Assembly (NCBI GenBank): GCA_026686805.1
Contig: GCA_026686805.1_3949.1
From: a phage
DNA: 52,601 nucleotides
Strand: one strand, 5' to 3'
The stretch's first letter is position 1. Each line of letters starts with the position of its first letter. The translations under genes were made by a program, and so were the position numbers. Positions 12,577 to 18,093 of the stretch are shown here, piece by piece. The notes beneath the pieces were generated by a model. That model ran no database searches. It was not told where the DNA came from and saw only the letters and a program-made list of their open reading frames with translations.

Positions 12577-12653
12577 CTCTGTTTAGCTCAGCTTGGTAGA
12601 GCGTTCCGTTTGGGGCGGTAAGGCCGGAGGTTCAAGTCCTCCAACAGAGACCA
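12577..12653 (+). tRNA. tRNA-Pro (anticodon TGG)
   Basis: hand-folded cloverleaf: acceptor ctctgtt/aacagag, D-arm gctcagcttggtagagc, anticodon loop ttTGGgg, T-loop ttcaagt, CCA encoded. Confidence 0.65.
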
Positions 12654-12660
12654 AATTAAT

Positions 12661-12738
12661 GTTCCAGTAGACAAAATGGTAAAGTCACCACTCTTTCAAA
12701 GTGGATATCTGAGGGTTCAAATCCCTTCTGGAACGCCA
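12661..12738 (+). tRNA. tRNA-Glu (anticodon TTC)
   Basis: acceptor gttccag/ctggaac, anticodon stem ccact/agtgg, loop ctTTCaa, T-loop ttcaaat, CCA encoded. Confidence 0.75.
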
Positions 12739-12745
12739 GTTTTGA

Positions 12746-12817
12746 CAGAAGACCAATTACAGCAAACTTAATCTACTCATCTGACACGAAATCGGACAAA
12801 GAAGATATTTGGTCTGG
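12746..12817 (+). repeat. bipartite spacer element copy a (CAGAAGACC-nnWTWCAGCAA ... GGTCTGG)
   Basis: seen directly; 5' block 12746-12765, 3' block 12811-12817; agacc/ggtct can pair. Confidence 0.5.
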
Positions 12818-12828
12818 TCATTGAGAAT

Positions 12829-12905
12829 TGCGGGTATAGAGAAAGGGCGTCTCACATGTCTCATTAGCATGGTATCGGCAGGTTCGACTCCTGCACCCGC
12901 CTCCA
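12829..12905 (+). tRNA. tRNA with CAT anticodon (Met or Ile-lysidine type)
   Basis: anticodon stem catgt/gcatg, loop ctCATta, T-arm gcagg-ttcgact-cctgc, CCA encoded; acceptor has a mismatch at one end so boundaries +/-1. Confidence 0.6.
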
Positions 12906-12911
12906 ATTTTG

Positions 12912-12971
12912 CAGAAGACCGTATTCAGCAACAAAATACTTTTTGCGGATAAAAGAAAAAACACGGTCTGG
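12912..12971 (+). repeat. bipartite spacer element copy b
   Basis: gcagaagaccgtattcagcaa ... acacggtctgg. Confidence 0.5.
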
Positions 12972-12982
12972 CAATGTATTAA

Positions 12983-13059
12983 GGTTAGGAAGCACATAAG
13001 GTATGTGCGGTCGCCTGTTAAGCGAATGGCACAGGGTTCGAATCCCTGACTAACCGCCA
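12983..13059 (+). tRNA. tRNA-Asn (anticodon GTT)
   Basis: acceptor ggttagg/actaacc, D-stem gcac/gtgc, anticodon loop ctGTTaa, T-arm caggg-ttcgaat-ccctg, CCA encoded. Confidence 0.7.
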
Positions 13060-13067
13060 AATTAAAT

Positions 13068-13155
13068 GTGTCGTTATCCCGTAGATGGTAGCGGTGGGGA
13101 CTGTAAATCCCTTGTCATTGAGACTCGGTAGGTTCGACTCCTACACGGCACACCA
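13068..13155 (+). tRNA. tRNA-Tyr (anticodon GTA), long variable arm
   Basis: acceptor gtgtcgt/acggcac, anticodon stem gggga/tccct, loop ctGTAaa, long variable arm, T-arm gtagg-ttcgact-cctac, CCA. Confidence 0.7.
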
Positions 13156-13160
13156 ATAAA

Positions 13161-13237
13161 GGCTATGTAGTTTAACTGGAGAAAATACTCCCCTGTCACG
13201 GGAGATGATGTGAGTTCAAGTCTCATCGTAGCCGCCA
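13161..13237 (+). tRNA. tRNA-Asp (anticodon GTC)
   Basis: acceptor ggctatg/cgtagcc, anticodon stem ctccc/gggag, loop ctGTCac, T-loop ttcaagt, CCA. Confidence 0.75.
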
Positions 13238-13298
13238 ATTTTGAGAGGGCTATTTAGCCCCTCCCTTAAAGAGTTCTTACGAGTATTCTTTAAAGGAG

Positions 13299-13372
13299 CA
13301 GAAGACCAAATACAGCAAGAATGTATGAAATTTCAAGCCAATTTAATTTTGAAAATTTAAAACTTGGTCTGG
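13299..13372 (+). repeat. bipartite spacer element copy c
   Basis: agcagaagaccaaatacagcaa ... aacttggtctgg. Confidence 0.5.
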
Positions 13373-13385
13373 CTCAACAAATTTA

Positions 13386-13517
13386 CAGAAGACCGTTTAC
13401 AGCAAAACTTAAACAATCTATTTCTCCGGTAAAGAAAAGGCGAAGGTTCGATTCCTTCACTCGGCAGATGTCGAGTTGGTGTAATGGTAGCACTTAAGAT
13501 GATAAACAACGGTCTGG
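13386..13517 (+). repeat. bipartite spacer element copy d, enclosing a tRNA-like relic
   Basis: acagaagaccgtttacagcaa ... aacaacggtctgg; interior holds T-arm/acceptor-like and acceptor/D-arm-like segments. Confidence 0.5.
13442..13495 (+). other. tRNA-like relic in reversed half order (T-arm + 3' acceptor strand immediately followed by complementary 5' acceptor strand + D-arm)
   Basis: gaagg-ttcgatt-ccttc + actcggc then gtcgagt + ggtgtaatggtagcac; no complete cloverleaf can be drawn. Confidence 0.35.
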
Positions 13518-13666
13518 TAATTATCTTTGTAGATAAGTTATTAAGCTTACCTGTGAGTATGCGACCACAAAGGGTGAAAGGGTAAATTCTAGATTTAAAC
13601 CCAACAAGGCACATCGCTACAGACCTTAAGCAAGTCTGGGTAGCTTATCTACAAAGGTAATTTAAT

Positions 13667-13742
13667 GGAAGTGTAGCAGAATGGTGATGCGGCAGACTTT
13701 TAATCTGACAGGCGATGGGTTCGAATCCCTCCACTTCTACCA
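13667..13742 (+). tRNA. tRNA-Lys (anticodon TTT)
   Basis: acceptor ggaagtg/cacttct, anticodon loop ctTTTaa, T-loop ttcgaat, CCA; T-stem weak in my fold. Confidence 0.6.
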
Positions 13743-13746
13743 AAAT

Positions 13747-13823
13747 GGTTCAGTCGCAGATAAGGTAATGCAAGGGTCTCATAAGCCCTATGAATGTGGG
13801 TTCAATTCCCATCTGAACCTCCA
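13747..13823 (+). tRNA. tRNA with CAT anticodon (Met, initiator or Ile-lysidine type)
   Basis: acceptor ggttcag/ctgaacc, anticodon stem agggt/gccct, loop ctCATaa, T-loop ttcaatt, CCA. Confidence 0.7.
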
Positions 13824-13831
13824 ATTTATCG

Positions 13832-14326
13832 GTGATACTTATGATTTGTGCTAACAAAGATTGCGGAAATGAAGCCGTTAAAGGTGGAAAATTTTGCTCA
13901 CGCTCTTGTTCTGCAAAAGTGAACAACAAGAAACACCCAAAGAGAAGTCAGGAAGGCTCTTGCCATTCATGCGGAAAGGTAACGCCAAAAGCAAGAAAAT
14001 ACTGTGACGAATGTATTTCAGGTGGAGTCATGAAAAAACATAAGACCCATCATGAAAAAAGCAAAGCTAAATCACTGCACGTTAAAAAGTCTCGTGATAG
14101 ACTGAAGAAGGCTTTAGTTGATTACAAGGGTGGTTGTTGTTCAATTTGTGGTTACAATAGGTGCATAAAGGCTCTAGAGTTTCACCACTTAGACCCTAAC
14201 ACAAAAGACTTCACAGTAGGTCAAAAACACTACTCACTGGCTACAATGCAGTCTGAAGTTGATAAGTGTGTCTTGCTTTGTGCAAATTGCCATAGAGAAG
14301 TACACGAAGGGGTAACAATGCTGTGA
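13832..14326 (+). CDS. HNH homing endonuclease (Cys-rich N-terminus, C-terminal HNH motif)
   Basis: C-terminal ...CSICGYNRC...LEFHHLDPNTKDF...CVLLCANCHREVHEG = HNH signature; embedded in tRNA array; stop codon overlaps start of tRNA-Ile. Confidence 0.75.
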   Translation: MILMICANKDCGNEAVKGGKFCSRSCSAKVNNKKHPKRSQEGSCHSCGKVTPKARKYCDECISGGVMKKHKTHHEKSKAKSLHVKKSRDRLKKALVDYKGGCCSICGYNRCIKALEFHHLDPNTKDFTVGQKHYSLATMQSEVDKCVLLCANCHREVHEGVTML

Positions 14327-14395
14327 AAGCACATATGGATGTGCATTCGGCTGATAACCGAAAGGTAGAAGGTTCGAATCCTTCTCACAGTACCA
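14320..14395 (+). tRNA. tRNA-Ile (anticodon GAT)
   Basis: acceptor gctgtga/tcacagt, D-stem gcac/gtgc, anticodon stem ttcgg/ccgaa, loop ctGATaa, T-arm gaagg-ttcgaat-ccttc, CCA. Confidence 0.75.
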
Positions 14396-14410
14396 ATTTC
14401 AATAAAGTTG

Positions 14411-14439
14411 TTGACATTGAGATGCGACTACTTTATAGT
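14411..14439 (+). promoter_or_regulatory. sigma70-like promoter TTGACA-17-TATAGT inside the tRNA array
   Basis: -35 ttgaca 14411-14416, 17-nt spacer, -10 tatagt 14434-14439. Confidence 0.5.
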
Positions 14440-14445
14440 AACCTT

Positions 14446-14610
14446 AGTTTTCGTTGCGTAGCGTCTATTTTGCAAATTTAAAATAAATGCAAACGACAAT
14501 GTTTTTCTGGCAGTAGCTTGATAGGCTAAACACCAGTGAGGTCTTCCAATCCCTCATCAAAGAATTTGGCGTACTAGCCCACGGTATGATTAATAAGGTG
14601 GGCATCTTTA
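14446..14610 (+). ncRNA. candidate small structured RNA downstream of promoter (no coding potential, no tRNA fold)
   Basis: hairpins tttgca/tgcaaa and gcccac(14577-14582)/gtgggc(14598-14603) followed by atcttt; purely structural inference. Confidence 0.2.
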
Positions 14611-14643
14611 AGGGCTTTCTAAGAGAGTCTTTAAAGATAATTA

Positions 14644-14725
14644 CGGGGCGTATCTCAGCGGTCTTCTAAACCGCCGTTAACCGAGTAAGTGGAGTATGCG
14701 GGTTCGAGTCCTGCCGCCTCGACCA
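14644..14725 (+). tRNA. atypical tRNA-like gene, possible tRNA-Arg (anticodon TCT); D-arm not placeable, 23-nt region between anticodon and T arms
   Basis: acceptor cggggcg/cgcctcg, perfect anticodon arm gcggt-ctTCTaa-accgc, T-arm gcggg-ttcgagt-cctgc, CCA; geometry non-canonical. Confidence 0.35.
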
Positions 14726-14868
14726 ATTTAGTTAGCAGATTACTTAGACGACCTTATCGGGTCTCCGTGTAAGGAGGTGGTCTGTATCTCATGTTTTCCA
14801 GAACATGTAAATAATCTGAGAAGGGGCTTTACAGTGTTGAGATAATACGGTAAGCTTCGAATTATAGT

Positions 14869-14951
14869 ATGGGACGATGTTAAGACTCTAAGGCATGAGC
14901 AACGGCTTCCAACACCGTTTCAAAGGGGTTCAACTCCTCCGTCCCATGCCA
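14869..14951 (+). tRNA. atypical tRNA-like gene, possible tRNA-Trp (anticodon CCA); 7 extra nt between acceptor and D-arm
   Basis: acceptor atgggac/gtcccat (7/7), anticodon arm acggc-ttCCAac-accgt, T-loop ttcaact, CCA. Confidence 0.35.
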
Positions 14952-14964
14952 AAGTCTTATTAGG

Positions 14965-15052
14965 GGTAGGTAGCGGCTAATGGTAGCCAAACTGTCTTGA
15001 AAACAGTTGCCACTGTAGAGATACGGTGAGGGTTCGACTCCTTTACTTACCG
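14965..15052 (+). tRNA. tRNA-Ser (anticodon TGA), long variable arm
   Basis: acceptor ggtaggt/acttacc, perfect anticodon stem actgt/acagt, loop ctTGAaa, 20-nt variable arm, T-arm gaggg-ttcgact-ccttt; CCA not encoded. Confidence 0.7.
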
Positions 15053-15310
15053 CCTAATAAGATTTTAAAGCCAAGCTTCATTCGGATGTTGCTTTGGTAT
15101 CCCTCGTGTATTGTCGTACACACTGATAAAACACCTAGTAGGTGTCACGGAGAAGAGATAATATCAAGCTCTCCAAAGGTTCTAGTCACCGGATTAAACA
15201 AGACTATGCAAAGACCTTTTTAGGTCTTTTTAGAGGGCTTCTAAGGTTATTACGGCTTGTTGTGGAACCTTGTTGCTTAGGTTCTTAGAAGTTCTCTAAA
15301 AAGATTTAAT

Positions 15311-15388
15311 GGGAGATTGACGGTAATTGGTAAACCTATCTCGCTTAGAACGAGATGTTTGAGGGTTCGAATCCCTTGTCTCCTACCA
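15311..15388 (+). tRNA. tRNA with TAG anticodon (Leu by anticodon), short variable loop
   Basis: acceptor gggagat/gtctcct, perfect anticodon stem tctcg/cgaga, loop ctTAGaa, T-loop ttcgaat, CCA; class I architecture unusual for Leu. Confidence 0.55.
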
Positions 15389-15395
15389 AATTAAT

Positions 15396-15471
15396 GCAGG
15401 TGTAGCAAAATGGTTATGCGGCTGACTCTTAATCAGTAAGACGATGGGTTCAATTCCCTCCACCTGTACCA
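15396..15471 (+). tRNA. tRNA-Lys (anticodon CTT)
   Basis: acceptor gcaggtg/cacctgt, anticodon stem gctga/tcagt, loop ctCTTaa, T-loop ttcaatt, CCA. Confidence 0.65.
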
Positions 15472-15476
15472 AAAAT

Positions 15477-15552
15477 GGGGTCATAGTTTATATGGTTAAA
15501 ATTCGAGTTTTGCAAACTTGGGAACTGAGTTCAATTCTCAGTGACTCCACCA
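15477..15552 (+). tRNA. tRNA-Ala (anticodon TGC)
   Basis: acceptor ggggtca/tgactcc, anticodon stem cgagt/acttg, loop ttTGCaa, T-loop ttcaatt, CCA. Confidence 0.65.
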
Positions 15553-15558
15553 ATTAGT

Positions 15559-15633
15559 GCATCCATAGTTTAAACGGGAAAATTACAGTCTTCCAAACTG
15601 AGGTTGAGGGTTCGATTCCCTCTGGATGCTCCA
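15559..15633 (+). tRNA. tRNA-Gly (anticodon TCC)
   Basis: acceptor gcatcca/tggatgc, anticodon loop ctTCCaa, T-arm gaggg-ttcgatt-ccctc, CCA. Confidence 0.7.
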
Positions 15634-15640
15634 AATTAAT

Positions 15641-15716
15641 GCTCCTATCGTATAATTGGCTATTACGGTTGCCTTGTAAGCAACTTATCAGGGTTCGAAT
15701 CCTTGTGGGAGCACCA
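15641..15716 (+). tRNA. tRNA-Thr (anticodon TGT)
   Basis: acceptor gctccta/tgggagc, perfect anticodon stem gttgc/gcaac, loop ctTGTaa, T-loop ttcgaat, CCA. Confidence 0.75.
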
Positions 15717-15718
15717 AT

Positions 15719-15811
15719 TCAGAGGTCAAGTGAAAGACCGCTGGTGTCAACTGAAGACCGTAACAAATTCCACGGAGTTGAGTTAGCGGCACAACTTCAG
15801 ACCTCTTTCAC
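15719..15811 (+). other. structured spacer element (inverted repeat agaggtc ... gacctct, internal gaagaccgtaacaaattc block)
   Basis: seen directly; related to the CAGAAGACC-containing spacer elements; function unknown. Confidence 0.3.
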
Positions 15812-15886
15812 ACTCGCTTAGTTTATATGGTAAAACATCACCCTTACAAGATGAAGAAAAAGGTTCAAGTCCTTTAGTGAGTACCA
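15812..15886 (+). tRNA. tRNA-Val (anticodon TAC)
   Basis: acceptor actcgct/agtgagt, anticodon stem tcacc/gatga (one mismatch), loop ctTACaa, T-arm aaagg-ttcaagt-ccttt, CCA. Confidence 0.65.
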
Positions 15887-15887
15887 T

Positions 15888-15965
15888 GTTCCAGTATCCC
15901 AATTGGCAGAGGATGCAAGCTCAAACCTTGTATTAGTGACGGTTCGAATCCGTCTTGGAACACCA
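15888..15965 (+). tRNA. tRNA with CAA anticodon (Leu by anticodon), short variable loop
   Basis: acceptor gttccag/ttggaac, anticodon stem gcaag/cttgt, loop ctCAAac, T-arm gacgg-ttcgaat-ccgtc, CCA. Confidence 0.55.
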
Positions 15966-15981
15966 ATTTTAGGAGAACACT

Positions 15982-16089
15982 ATGAGCAATAAGTCAATTG
16001 CAAAAAAGTTTAGAGCGTCATACCTAAACAGACGTAAAAACAAAGTTTGTGAAAAACTGTATGGTGTTCTCGTAGGTAAGCAGGATTAG
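15982..16089 (+). CDS. possible small ORF (35 aa, basic) overlapping the 5' end of tRNA-Arg
   Basis: AGGAG RBS 6 nt upstream of ATG; below the track's 60-aa cutoff; overlap with tRNA makes it doubtful. Confidence 0.2.
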   Translation: MSNKSIAKKFRASYLNRRKNKVCEKLYGVLVGKQD

Positions 16090-16155
16090 TTCAAATGGAT
16101 AGAGCAACAGTCTACGAAGCTGTTAATAGGGGTTCGAATCCCTTATCCTGCACCA
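16080..16155 (+). tRNA. tRNA-Arg (anticodon ACG)
   Basis: acceptor gcaggat/atcctgc, D-arm gttcaaatggatagagc, anticodon stem acagt/gctgt, loop ctACGaa, T-loop ttcgaat, CCA. Confidence 0.75.
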
Positions 16156-16174
16156 ATTTAAAGAGGCTATTTAG

Positions 16175-16732
16175 ATGAGATATTTGAAGTATGCTTCATG
16201 GATTTTCTTAGCTTTGTTAGAGCCATTTGCAGCAATCTTAGCAGTTATCTTAGCACCTTTTGTAGTTCCATTCTACAGTGAGAAGAAAGGACACTTACCT
16301 TTCGGGTTCAGATGGATGGAGACATATGACAACCCAATTGATGGTGATGAAGGTCACGTTAAAAGATGGGCTAATATCAGATGGATTGGTAAACTAGGTG
16401 TCTACATGCAAAGAGTCGGATGGCTCTGGAGAAACAAAGCTTATAACTTCTCTTACCATGTATTAGGAAGAGATGTAAAAGATGTTACTAAGTGGAAAGG
16501 TAATATCAACGTAAGTTCTGACCCTGAAGATAATCAGACAGGTTATCTACTAATGTGGAACAGTAATGCTTGGGGATTATTCGCTTTTATCCCATCAATT
16601 AAAATCTTTGGTAAACAATTTTACTGGAGAATTTATATTGGATGGAAACTAAAAAGTGTTGTCCCAGAAGAAAGAGCATTCTCAAGGGAAAGAGTTATGT
16701 TGGCATTCTTTATTCATCCACTGAGAAAGTAA
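16175..16732 (+). CDS. hypothetical protein with hydrophobic N-terminus (185 aa), embedded in tRNA array
   Basis: ORF from track; N-terminal hydrophobic segment WIFLALLEPFAAILAVILAPFVVPF. Confidence 0.5.
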   Translation: MRYLKYASWIFLALLEPFAAILAVILAPFVVPFYSEKKGHLPFGFRWMETYDNPIDGDEGHVKRWANIRWIGKLGVYMQRVGWLWRNKAYNFSYHVLGRDVKDVTKWKGNINVSSDPEDNQTGYLLMWNSNAWGLFAFIPSIKIFGKQFYWRIYIGWKLKSVVPEERAFSRERVMLAFFIHPLRK

Positions 16733-16740
16733 AGATTTAA

Positions 16741-16816
16741 AGGGGATTAGTTTACAAGGTTAAAACCTCGGTCTTTGAAATCGAAGAAGTTGGTTCAATT
16801 CCAACATCCCCCGCCA
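16741..16816 (+). tRNA. tRNA-Gln (anticodon TTG)
   Basis: acceptor aggggat/atccccc (1-72 mismatch), anticodon stem tcggt/atcga, loop ctTTGaa, T-arm gttgg-ttcaatt-ccaac, CCA. Confidence 0.65.
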
Positions 16817-16818
16817 AT

Positions 16819-16897
16819 GCTCCATTACTCCAATTGGCAGAGAGGCCAGACTTAAAATCTGTGTTATGTATCGGTTCGAATCCGATATGGAGTACCA
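16819..16897 (+). tRNA. tRNA with TAA anticodon (Leu by anticodon), short variable loop
   Basis: acceptor gctccat/atggagt, anticodon stem caga/tctg, loop ctTAAaa, T-arm atcgg-ttcgaat-ccgat, CCA. Confidence 0.5.
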
Positions 16898-16902
16898 AAT
16901 TT

Positions 16903-16978
16903 AGCGGCATAGCATAACTGGCAATGCAGCAGTCTCTGAAGCTGTCTTATTAAGGTTCAAATCCTTATGCCGCTGCCA
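16903..16978 (+). tRNA. tRNA-Gln (anticodon CTG)
   Basis: acceptor agcggca/tgccgct, D-stem gcat/atgc, anticodon loop ctCTGaa (stem with two G-U pairs), T-arm taagg-ttcaaat-cctta, CCA. Confidence 0.55.
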
Positions 16979-17009
16979 CTTCTAAGGATTCTTACGAGAG
17001 TCCTTAAAT

Positions 17010-17085
17010 GTGGCCTTATCATAAACGGTAATGACCCATGCTGTGAACATGGTCTATACGGGTTCAAATCCCGTAGGTCACCCCA
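17010..17085 (+). tRNA. tRNA-His (anticodon GTG)
   Basis: acceptor gtggcct/aggtcac, perfect anticodon stem ccatg/catgg, loop ctGTGaa, T-arm acggg-ttcaaat-cccgt, CCA. Confidence 0.7.
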
Positions 17086-17091
17086 ATTTAT

Positions 17092-17167
17092 AGTCCAAGT
17101 AGCTTATATGGTTAAAGCGCGTGTCTGAAAAACATGAGAAGAGTGTTCAAATCCCACTGGACTACCA
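17092..17167 (+). tRNA. tRNA-Phe (anticodon GAA)
   Basis: acceptor (t)agtcca/tggact(a), anticodon stem cgtgt/acatg, loop ctGAAaa, T-loop ttcaaat; 5' boundary +/-1. Confidence 0.6.
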
Positions 17168-17183
17168 ATTTCAAAGGTGCTTA

Positions 17184-17918
17184 ATGAAAGAGATGACAGA
17201 ACAAGGTAAGGAGATTTTCAATCTCTTAAAAACCGGTAAAGGGTTTTCTAACCCCCTTATTACTGGTGCAGCAGTTCTCGGTGGAACCGTAGCTGCCTCT
17301 ACATCACTTGTAAGCTCTATTAGCTCTGTATCAGACCCTACAGTAAAGGATAAGCTTGTTGCTGCTGGACTTACAACAGTTCTGCTTAACAGCTTTACCA
17401 CGAGTCTGACAAGCACTACATCAACTACCAAAACACTAACAGATTACGGTCAAAAATCCATTGATGAGTTTTCATCACGTATGCAGGTAGCAAAAGGTTA
17501 TTCTAATGTTATGGGTGCAGCAGGTGAACAAGTTGGCTGTACACCATTTAGTGGTATTATGGGTGTTGCTACAGAGTATGGTCAAAAAGCTATTGATACG
17601 ATTAACAGTGCACTAGATAGTGTTAATGGTGTGTTAAGTGACTTACAAGATGCTATTGACAAAGGTCTTGATACTATTTCTGATTTAGCTGAGCAAGCTG
17701 TTAGTAAGATTAATGAAGGTATTTCAAAAATTACAGCTTATGCAGATGAAGTTGTGCAGATGATTGAAGAAGAAGCTGCTCTTATTGCAGAGTACCTTAA
17801 AACGAATATCAATGGGTTCTTAGCAGGTATCTTACCAGACTGGTTTGATGATGCTTGTAAAACTGGTGTAATTGACACTATTGCAACACCAGAAATGAAG
17901 AACGCATTACAGAAATAA
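17184..17918 (+). CDS. hypothetical Ser/Thr-rich protein (244 aa), embedded in tRNA array
   Basis: track ORF 17121..17918 overlaps tRNA-Phe; ATG at 17184 has RBS aaaggtg and clears the tRNA. Confidence 0.5.
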   Translation: MKEMTEQGKEIFNLLKTGKGFSNPLITGAAVLGGTVAASTSLVSSISSVSDPTVKDKLVAAGLTTVLLNSFTTSLTSTTSTTKTLTDYGQKSIDEFSSRMQVAKGYSNVMGAAGEQVGCTPFSGIMGVATEYGQKAIDTINSALDSVNGVLSDLQDAIDKGLDTISDLAEQAVSKINEGISKITAYADEVVQMIEEEAALIAEYLKTNINGFLAGILPDWFDDACKTGVIDTIATPEMKNALQK

Positions 17919-17920
17919 AT

Positions 17921-18013
17921 GGAAGATTAACCCTAAAAGGTAAGGGAGCAGTTTGCTAAACTGCCAGTAGCTGAGAAATCGGTGTACCAGTTCAAGTCTG
18001 GTATCTTCCTCCA
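17921..18013 (+). tRNA. tRNA-Ser (anticodon GCT), long variable arm
   Basis: acceptor ggaagat/atcttcc, perfect anticodon stem gcagt/actgc, loop ttGCTaa, ~21-nt variable arm, T-arm accag-ttcaagt-ctggt, CCA. Confidence 0.75.
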
Positions 18014-18017
18014 ATTT

Positions 18018-18093
18018 GAATCCGTGACAGAAATGGCTATGTGCCTGTCTGCAAAACAGGTTTATAAGGGTTCGAGTCCCTTCGGATTCTCCA
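18018..18093 (+). tRNA. tRNA-Cys (anticodon GCA)
   Basis: acceptor gaatccg/cggattc, perfect anticodon stem cctgt/acagg, loop ctGCAaa, T-arm aaggg-ttcgagt-ccctt, CCA. Confidence 0.75.

Follow-up and report, generated by a model that had tools for sequence, protein, structure and literature searches.

A stretch of phage DNA that carries no annotation was found to hold one copy of an RNA family, here called the half-tmRNA, which combines a tmRNA-like tag reading frame, helix 5 and pseudoknots with a 5' domain that is reverse-complementary to the tag region of the host tmRNA gene, ssrA. This copy runs from 14446 to 14603 and is followed by a 16-bp hairpin that extends to 14638. We give a probability of roughly 0.5 to the reading, drawn from sequence comparison, that the half-tmRNA docks on the host tmRNA, hides the tag encoded there and provides a tag template of its own; the fuller picture, of a chimeric RNA that hijacks the host tmRNA to form a trans-acting two-piece tmRNA of virus and host, is put forward more tentatively. 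All positions refer to the window, i.e., the whole 52,601-nt stretch of DNA that was analysed, and the features at and beside the half-tmRNA are as follows.

14411 to 14439, plus strand: sigma-70-type promoter (-35 TTGACA, 14411-14416; 17-nt spacer; -10 TATAGT, 14434-14439)
14446 to 14482, plus strand: 5' antisense domain AGUUUUCGUUGCGUAGCGUCUAUUUUGCAAAUUUAAA; its nt 1-26 are reverse-complementary to E. coli ssrA nt 81-105
14466 to 14485, plus strand: predicted hairpin UAUUUUG/UAAAAUA, just 5' of the resume codon (minimum free energy, MFE, fold)
14483 to 14488, plus strand: linker AUAAAU, which places U(-5) and A(-4) ahead of the resume codon (invariant alignment columns)
14489 to 14524, plus strand: tag frame GCA AAC GAC AAU GUU UUU CUG GCA GUA GCU UGA UAG, encoding ANDNVFLAVA
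14507 to 14536, plus strand: hairpin equivalent to tmRNA helix 5 (helices 1 and 2 of the model), with outer stem CUGG/CCAG, inner stem AGCU/GGCU and the stop codon UGA in the loop
14537 to 14569, plus strand: pseudoknot A, UGAGG (14537-14541) with CCUCA (14552-14556), and loop CCAA (14546-14549) with UUGG (14566-14569)
14570 to 14603, plus strand: pseudoknot B, CGUACU (14570-14575) with GGUAUG (14583-14588), and GCCCAC (14577-14582) with GUGGGC (14598-14603)
14604 to 14638, plus strand: 16-bp hairpin AUCUUUAAGGGCUUUC-UAA-GAGAGUCUUUAAAGAU, with no U-tail (MFE fold)
14644 to 14725, plus strand: tRNA-like RNA that lacks a D arm, with a UCU anticodon loop and with its CCA encoded (Rfam tRNA, 31.7 bits)

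Genomic setting and distribution of the RNA family

The window derives from a Felix O1-like myovirus (Felixounavirus), and its closest record is Escherichia phage garuso, with 99.4% identity over 14300-14800. The half-tmRNA locus lies inside a plus-strand tRNA cluster (25 tRNAs called by ARAGORN, 12577-18093), with tRNA-Ile (14320-14395) upstream and the tRNA-like RNA downstream; the latter is probably a co-transcribed neighbour and not part of the half-tmRNA.

The promoter noted in the initial annotation is present, matching the consensus at 11 of 12 positions and ranking as the best of 17 promoter-like sites between 12000 and 19000. It is also the sole site in the 52.6-kb window that, with a 17-nt spacer, departs from the consensus at no more than one position; shuffled sequence holds 0.70 such sites on average, with at least one in 47 of 100 shuffles, so that the match alone is not significant. 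The promoter is credible because its position recurs in independent lineages, not because of its match score: phages swi2, Sf11, VLCpiS13c and Hena2 and an SSU5-like plasmid each carry a sigma-70-like promoter with a start at, or a few nucleotides before, the conserved AGUUUUCG. We infer a transcription start at A14446 in the window. A discrete RNA of ~160-190 nt, reaching from 14446 to ~14603 or 14638, is predicted to be made from this strong sigma-70 promoter, and the promoter probably drives the downstream tRNAs as well.

A sensitive blastn search with 14396-14964 revealed matches of 72-81% identity to ~14480-14604 in many unrelated phages, none of them lying under an annotation. The carriers recovered were Ackermannviridae (Det7, S118, CBA120, EspM4VN), N4-like Schitoviridae (UTK0002, Pollock), 46-48-kb siphoviruses (swi2, Sf11, VLCpiS13c), Erwinia phage Hena2 and a 110-kb Klebsiella phage; all matches were intergenic and, where tRNAs exist nearby, on the same strand as these. 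A pattern scan of IMG/VR returned at least 120 viral contigs, with at least 85-100 distinct versions of the half-tmRNA. A main-type copy matched 752 of 50,697 phage records, the hosts of which are all Enterobacterales (Salmonella, Escherichia, Klebsiella, Erwinia, Shigella, Citrobacter, Serratia, Enterobacter). The groups that carry the half-tmRNA are Felixounavirus, Ackermannviridae, N4-like phages, 47-kb siphoviruses, P1/P7, SSU5-like phage-plasmids and lambdoid prophages, and it is very likely that their copies represent one RNA family.

The position of the half-tmRNA differs among these carriers. In P7, it is found in the leader of the C1-controlled ban operon, upstream of tRNA-Asn and tRNA-Thr, and in an SSU5-like phage-plasmid it adjoins tRNAs; in a lambdoid prophage of E. 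coli O26:H11 11368, it lies between the Q antiterminator and holin genes, with no tRNAs nearby. Within E. coli, 329 of 5426 complete genomes hold the half-tmRNA, in 97 chromosomal places and 237 places on plasmids of ~95-125 kb.

Structure, tag reading frame and the missing tRNA-like domain

Two checks that the initial annotation had proposed, RNA folding and a covariance search in relatives, both supported a structured RNA. The fold of 14446-14645 has an energy of -57.9 kcal/mol (z = -4.57), with 0 of 200 shuffles as good. Six helices were tested against 85 distinct sequences, which MAFFT had aligned without regard to any structure; 91.0% of cells pair in this model, vs. 28.7-42.6% when the partners are slid, both sides have changed at 18 of the 28 pairs, and the observed values were reached in 0 of 500 shuffles.

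As in tmRNA, the stop codon lies within a helix 5 and the tag is followed by pseudoknots, and covariation supports both. The helix 5 equivalent displays a compensatory GC-to-AU change at pair 36-59 (49 vs. 33 sequences) and further compensatory changes at pairs 41-52 and 44-49; its Felix-type inner stem is off by one column in the MAFFT alignment. Pseudoknot A (helices 3 and 4 of the model) is paired in 99.1% of cells, with both-side changes at 3 of the 5 pairs of helix 3 and at 3 of the 4 pairs of helix 4. Pseudoknot B, with its conserved loop AUUAAUAA, comprises helices 5 and 6 of the model, paired in 99.8% and 83% of cells, respectively, and in the latter both sides have changed at all 4 pairs. 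Linkers elsewhere in the half-tmRNA tolerate indels. Outside the six helices, the hairpin at 14466-14485 is uncertain, having no informative covariation; by forming it in the MFE fold, part of the antisense block of the window can also pair within the molecule, which competes with part of the antisense pairing. The 16-bp hairpin at 14604-14638 corresponds to longer hairpin modules that follow the half-tmRNA in other phages and is probably a processing signal or a boundary before the next RNA.

These results bear on the hairpins described in the initial annotation. The gcccac/gtgggc stem is real, but it constitutes one helix of pseudoknot B; its description as terminator-like does not stand, as the terminator scan does not list the site and the atcttt, which is not a U-tail, forms the 5' strand of the 16-bp hairpin that follows. 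The option of a small RNA fared better, since conservation over unrelated phage families, covariation and an own promoter strongly support a discrete functional RNA. The tmRNA-like tag ORF, the two pseudoknots and the reverse complementarity of the 5' domain to host ssrA had gone unrecorded.

Sequence upstream of the resume codon plays a role in frame choice in tmRNA (PMC2481249). In the window, the context of the putative resume codon resembles that of E. coli tmRNA (AAUAAAU-GCA in the window vs. AAUAGUC-GCA in E. coli ssrA), and U(-5) and A(-4) stand at the same distance from the resume codon as U85 and A86 of E. coli ssrA. Preceded by a 10-nt linker, the resume codon opens, without a start codon, an ORF that runs to a stop (GCA...UGA, 14489-14521), as in tmRNA. 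The window tag ANDNVFLAVA and the E. coli tag ANDENYALAA both comprise 10 encoded residues. Among the matches listed, the tag frame has exactly 10 codons followed by a stop in all 85 distinct versions, whereas the other two frames range from 1 to 32 codons; over the same listed versions, the stop codon is UAA in 77, UGA in 6 and UAG in 2, all four Ala codons are used at codon 10, and codon 7 is CUG or UUG. Other tags include ANDDVVLMAA, ANEEMYLAVA, ANDEQFLAVA, ANDNTFLAVA, ANDDLMLAAA and, in P7, ANDDLMMAAA. For pairs of tag ORFs that are one nucleotide apart, pairs that are not phylogenetically independent, 16 of 19 differences fall at codon position 3; within the unstructured tag codons 1-6, there are 7 synonymous vs. 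3 non-synonymous differences, against an expected synonymous share of 18%. From these substitution patterns, the tag looks to be evolving as a translated frame.

No tRNA-like domain accompanies this frame. ARAGORN detected the control tmRNAs of two unrelated contigs that the pattern scan had caught (L052 and L066) and none in the window or at 29 related loci; Rfam 15 at gathering thresholds detected a canonical phage tmRNA as a control and no tmRNA at the half-tmRNA. At gathering and at permissive thresholds alike, Rfam searches of the window and of 14 related loci returned nothing but tRNAs and tmRNA matches below threshold, with the tmRNA models scoring 11.4-21.1 bits over the tag region only, vs. 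a gathering score of 47. The statement in the initial annotation that the non-coding stretch has no tRNA fold is correct according to both ARAGORN and Rfam. At the 5' end, a promoter start falls at or a few nucleotides before AGUUUUCG in the Felix-, swi2-, Hena2- and SSU5-type copies and a hairpin ends there in the other types; because a promoter or hairpin abuts nt 1, there is no room for a 5' acceptor strand. At the 3' end, the half-tmRNA closes with pseudoknot B, without a G:U at pair 3 or a CCA. No covarying pseudoknot 1 (PK1) was found upstream of the resume codon, and this region is the one that is reverse-complementary to host ssrA nt 68/81-105. Since the half-tmRNA lacks the defining tRNA-like domain, it is not classed here with tmRNA or two-piece tmRNA.

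Several candidate elements were considered and rejected. Pseudoknot B was set aside as a TYMV-like acceptor mimic, given that it has no G:U at pair 3 and no consistent CCA. An acceptor built from the downstream AGCUCCACGA and the upstream GGGGCAG of the L014-type loci is not conserved in L012 or L037, and local closing stems fit better. The upstream helix GGACUCA/UGAGUCC of the Ackermannviridae covaries but has no G3:U70 and no CCA, and an ARAGORN tmRNA call in L003 is spurious, borrowing the T arm of a tRNA-Met. A minus-strand 46-aa ORF and an AUG-frame mini-ORF were both dismissed as genes, their lengths not being conserved; the initial annotation, which had seen no ORF here, is right in that the minus-strand ORF (14465-14605) is not conserved, but small ORFs do exist mechanically.

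Complementarity to the host tmRNA and its proposed consequences

The main-type 5' domain is the reverse complement of ssrA nt 68-105. The target within ssrA begins in the linker or, in the main type only, in the 3' half of PK1 and extends over the resume codon to tag codons 1-5 or 1-6; the antisense length is about 26-37 nt in the window and ~40-50 nt in most relatives. With ssrA of the E. coli K-12 genome as the reference, the best duplex was computed for each of 51 distinct 5' domains, the computation being restricted to this domain because RNAduplex on the whole RNA is meaningless (huge loops). All 51 domains have their best duplex on overlapping stretches of ssrA nt 49-139, 36 of them on nt 54-106. 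Aligned to the ssrA reverse complement, the window scored 26 (null 14.4 ± 2.1, maximum 22 in 500) and the related copy L014 scored 36 over nt 68-105 (null 14.4 ± 2.0), whereas alignments of the 5' domains to the ssrA sense strand scored only 12-13.

For the window, the predicted duplex comprises 23 bp over host nt 77-105 at -26.0 kcal/mol, an energy that is modest (z = -2.2, with 6 of 200 dinucleotide shuffles as good). It would join 14446-14456 to host 95-105 (tag codons 2-6), 14461-14463 to host 89-91 (resume codon), 14465-14468 to host 84-87, and 14469-14473 to host 77-81 (PK1 3' strand); when the window RNA and ssrA nt 45-140 are cofolded with only nested structures allowed, the same pairs form, with a ddG of -20.2 kcal/mol. 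Main-type duplexes reach -40 to -48 kcal/mol, vs. -23 to -35 ± 3 kcal/mol for dinucleotide shuffles; z is -5.8 for L014 and -6.3 for L004 (0 of 200 shuffles as good) and -3.3 for Det7. In L014, ~41 of 49 nt are paired, through AGUUUUCGUC/GACGAAAACU (host tag codons 3-6), GCGAC/GUCGC (host -3 to +2), UUUGCGG/CCGCAAA and CUUUUUA/UAAAAAG (PK1 3' half). An extended, above-chance complementarity at one conserved ssrA site, as is characteristic of antisense RNAs, was therefore noted across the family and is weaker for the version in the window.

The 5' domains pair much more weakly with the tag regions of their own phages (-14.7 to -27.9 kcal/mol). The phage tags are unlike the host tag at codons 3-6, with the host GAA-AAC present in none, and the phage upstream sequence is altered where self-pairing would occur (host CCGC...GUCGC vs. 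phage CCAC...AAUGC). The host target is near-invariant in Enterobacterales (...GCCGCAAAAAA(A)UAGUCGCAAACGACGAAAACU... in 117 tmRNAs), and no host-specific co-variation was found; its Enterobacterales-wide occurrence matches the host range of the carriers. A pattern search for a Yersinia-adapted version returned only a P-loop protein gene and chance matches. Conservation within the 5' domain is no higher at paired than at unpaired positions, a comparison that is uninformative here. The first 6 nt of the half-tmRNA are unpaired in the MFE fold (a nested fold, without pseudoknots), and the host tag codons are single-stranded in the established tmRNA structure. Functional pairing of the half-tmRNA with the host tmRNA is considered probable from these comparisons. 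The 5' domain probably arose when the PK1-tag region of an ssrA gene was duplicated in inverted orientation, and the complementarity could be a relic of such a duplication and not a working interaction.

In the proposed mechanism, the single-stranded 5' end AGUUUUCGU would seed on the single-stranded host tag codons GAC-GAA-AAC-U, from which pairing would spread towards PK1, producing a heteroduplex that covers the host resume codon and tag and replaces PK1. Because the duplex would be antiparallel, the phage linker and resume codon would exit at the end where host helix 2 and the tRNA-like domain lie; the phage resume codon would emerge beside these, ~10 nt from the duplex end, a spacing close to the normal distance between PK1 and the resume codon in the host tmRNA. 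Host Ala-tmRNA/SmpB would still enter stalled ribosomes and translation would resume on the phage tag, such that rescued proteins would end in the phage tag (...LAVA, ...LMAA) and not in ...ALAA, which would alter or blunt their delivery to ClpXP/SspB. The tags keep AANDxx(F/Y) in many lineages and end in LAVA, LMAA or LAAA, and recognition by ClpX, ClpA or SspB could be altered accordingly. The minimum outcome would be a block of host tagging, and the half-tmRNA probably either redirects or obstructs ribosome rescue in the host. Interruptions in the duplex may limit cleavage by RNase III, or a long duplex might instead be cut by this enzyme, which would amount to pure inhibition. We know of no precedent for a heteroduplex rod of ~25-50 bp in the place of PK1 being compatible with the ribosome, and the use of the phage tag in place of the host tag is given odds that approach even without quite reaching them. 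Such a template hijack would explain the missing tRNA-like domain, the coding constraint on the tag, and the divergence between phage and host tags where self-pairing would be harmful.

The main rival explanation is a pure antisense inhibitor, in which the host tmRNA would be inactivated through masking of the resume codon, unfolding of PK1 or RNase III, and the tag-like half would be a stabilising scaffold or a left-over that is never translated. This explanation draws on the same ssrA complementarity and does not call for an unusual geometry of the ribosome. There are known phage RNAs that inactivate small RNAs of the host by base-pairing, such as the anti-sRNAs of EHEC prophages. It covers the pairing but not the codon-level constraint: the codon-periodic substitutions, the fixed length of 10 codons, the changes from stop to stop and the retained U(-5)A(-4) are unexpected of an untranslated scaffold, and the other linkers of the half-tmRNA tolerate indels, unlike the tag frame. 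Pure antisense action is therefore regarded as unlikely, at something over one chance in five.

A decoy of tmRNA's mRNA-like domain, titrating a host factor that binds there (SmpB at secondary sites, S1, RNase R) or else a tmRNA-targeting nuclease or sensor of a defence system, would be consistent with the retention of the resume region, helix 5 and pseudoknots, and with neighbours that are cargo of an accessory or anti-defence type (tRNAs, homing endonucleases). A decoy role leaves unexplained the reverse-complement 5' domain and the synonymous-site pattern, and beyond the tag region there is no sequence similarity to enterobacterial ssrA (only 329 of the 5426 genomes match); it is considered improbable. 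Less probable again is that the half-tmRNA is the coding piece of a phage two-piece tmRNA, with an acceptor piece such as the tRNA-like RNA at 14644-14725. Natural two-piece tmRNAs exist (PMC4131195), and this neighbour has the alanine identity pair G3:U70, A73 and CCA in the present phage. It was nevertheless rejected as the acceptor partner: it has a covarying anticodon stem with a UCU anticodon, its slot alternates with a canonical tRNA-Arg(UCU), and the pair is G3-C70 in ESCO9. Outside Felixounavirus, the neighbour and the half-tmRNA occur in different phage groups, no complementarity joins the two, and many carriers have no tRNA-like gene nearby. That the stretch is an ordinary leader or spacer of the tRNA operon, decaying ssrA-derived junk or a 46-aa minus-strand gene is hardly credible despite its location between a promoter and tRNAs and its mechanical ORF, as compensatory changes recur across at least six unrelated phage groups, the longest stop-free minus-strand stretch measures anything between 26 and 48 aa, the 5' domain has indels whose lengths are not multiples of three, and the suggestion in the initial annotation of just a leader for the downstream tRNAs is untenable because the same RNA is found in phages and prophages where no tRNA genes are nearby.

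Implications and comparison with known systems

Trans-translation is the main bacterial pathway of ribosome rescue and protein quality control; it matters for P22, Mu and lambda hybrids, and how phages handle it is poorly understood. The half-tmRNA family is present in ~750 phages, including P1/P7, Felix O1 relatives, CBA120 and other Kuttervirus therapy candidates, as well as in prophages of pathogenic E. coli, and it is apparently built to engage the host tmRNA, suggesting a widespread and unrecognised route of host takeover. The template-hijack model predicts AANDNVFLAVA on non-stop products. If the model is true, tmRNA can receive its tag template in trans, and the half-tmRNA would be the first instance in which a virus rewrites the ssrA degron, with rescue continuing under a viral tag; a possible tool would be the programmable change or block of this degron. 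Unexplained non-coding stretches in many phage genomes could now be labelled. In the searchable full-text literature, no description was found of a tag RNA without a tRNA-like domain, or of an anti-tmRNA RNA, in phages, and as far as we can tell the half-tmRNA is undescribed so far.

Compared with tmRNA (SsrA, RF00023), the half-tmRNA shares a GCA resume codon after an A-rich linker containing U(-5)A(-4), a tag starting with ANDx and ending with hydrophobic-A-x-A, a stop codon in the loop of helix 5, and H-type pseudoknots downstream. In contrast to tmRNA, it has no acceptor stem, T arm, CCA or D-loop and can therefore neither be charged nor bind EF-Tu/SmpB as a tRNA mimic; it measures ~160 nt, with two pseudoknots and with a host-antisense domain replacing PK1.

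The two-piece tmRNAs of alpha- and beta-proteobacteria and cyanobacteria (RF01849-51, RF04321) are similar in that tag template and acceptor end reside on separate, base-paired RNAs. In those systems, a single gene yields both pieces, which are paired by way of helices 1 and 2, whereas the partner of the half-tmRNA would be a complete host tmRNA, paired at PK1, the resume codon and the tag. The best match of an Rfam permuted-tmRNA model to the half-tmRNA covers the tag region only, and directly upstream of the half-tmRNA no two-piece acceptor piece was found, with only tRNA-Ile and then the promoter there.

The phage tmRNAs on record are either complete (mycobacteriophage Bxz1 group, Bacillus phage G) or consist of the tRNA-like domain only (DS6A), the latter being thought to interfere with host trans-translation (PMC4131195, PMC11915505); the pipeline of the tmRNA database explicitly discards truncations (PMC11915505). 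Like these, the half-tmRNA is a phage-borne tmRNA derivative. Unlike the tmRNAs of the Bxz1 group, phage G and DS6A, it represents the opposite half, fused to an antisense domain, and it is missed by the standard tools that detect the L066 tmRNA.

Phage-encoded anti-sRNAs are exemplified by AgvB and AsxR of EHEC prophages. The half-tmRNA resembles them in its extended, interrupted complementarity to an abundant host non-coding RNA and in occupying a moron position, e.g., between Q and the lysis genes. It differs from AgvB and AsxR in that its target is tmRNA, in that its copy in the window has no Rho-independent terminator or obvious Hfq module, and in that it bears a translatable tag template. 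Considered against these systems, the half-tmRNA would act in part as an antisense RNA and in part as the tag-coding piece does in two-piece tmRNAs.

tRNA-like elements beside the tag RNA

Two stretches in the tRNA cluster of the window resemble tRNAs without a canonical fold:

14644-14725, D-armless tRNA-like RNA (Rfam tRNA match, 31.7 bits)
14868-14951, second non-canonical tRNA-like fold

The first, which ARAGORN does not call, has an acceptor stem (CGGGGCG/CGCCUCG) that includes G3:U70, only UAUCUC in the place of the D arm, the anticodon loop CUUCUAA (UCU), a variable region of 22 nt, a normal T arm and an encoded A73-CCA. In other Felixounaviruses its slot is occupied by a canonical tRNA-Arg(UCU). 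Copies of the D-armless form that are 82-90% identical occur in phages of Asteriusvirus, Sugarlandvirus and Justusliebigvirus; their acceptor and anticodon stems show compensatory changes, and the copy of ESCO9 carries G3-C70. This RNA may be a variant tRNA-Arg that evades a tRNA-targeting defence.

The second fold is called by neither ARAGORN nor Rfam. Its acceptor-like stem has 9 bp and is accompanied by a short D-like hairpin, by a stem of 5 bp whose 9-nt loop reads CUUCCAACA, and by a T arm (GGGGUUCAACUCCUC); the 3' end is GCCA.

Hairpins and an inserted ORF in the cluster

Two further features lie within the same cluster:

13832-14326, ORF for an HNH homing endonuclease (164 aa), lying as an insertion between tRNA-Met and tRNA-Ile
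15216-15315, long hairpin (about 100 nt, near-perfect) that ends on base 1 of tRNA-Leu (15311)

The stop codon of the HNH ORF overlaps the start of tRNA-Ile, and insertions of this kind are present in some relatives and absent in others. The stem of the long hairpin (UUUAGAGGGCUUCUAAG) is similar to the hairpin at 14604-14638, and this hairpin type may be a recurring processing signal within the tRNA cluster. Plant-miRNA matches from Rfam at this position are spurious, being produced by the long hairpin itself.

Arrays of long hairpin modules were also seen within about 250 nt on each side of the tag RNA in five other loci (L012, L014, L021, L037 and L042), which are 40-60-kb contigs, mostly of temperate type. 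The modules share common ends (ACAGGUAAGAGCAUU ... AGUGCUCUUUCCNG) around variable inserts, some of which contain T-arm-like hairpins (GGUUCGAnUCC), and a further conserved unit ends in ...GCCGUYAGCUCCACGAAACG. Modules and unit may be additional phage RNAs not described so far, or may serve as tRNA-like punctuation for processing.

Tag RNAs in further settings and a canonical tmRNA

Full copies of the tag RNA, none of the three annotated, were found in further settings:

1498-1680 of phage P7 (L135), tag ANDDLMMAAA, in the P1/P7 ban-operon leader
2500-2660 of E. coli plasmid pRM9975-1 (L132), tag ANEEVYLAVA, in an SSU5-like phage-plasmid
2501-2621 of an O26:H11 prophage (L133), lambdoid, between Q and holin

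Additionally, a 158-kb viral contig (L066) encodes a one-piece canonical tmRNA at 328-633, whose tag is ANDDIEAMGEVALAA. In the resume region (CUAUAAAUGCAAACGAUGAU) this tmRNA is nearly identical to the tag RNAs, and it may be related to the ancestor of the tag module.
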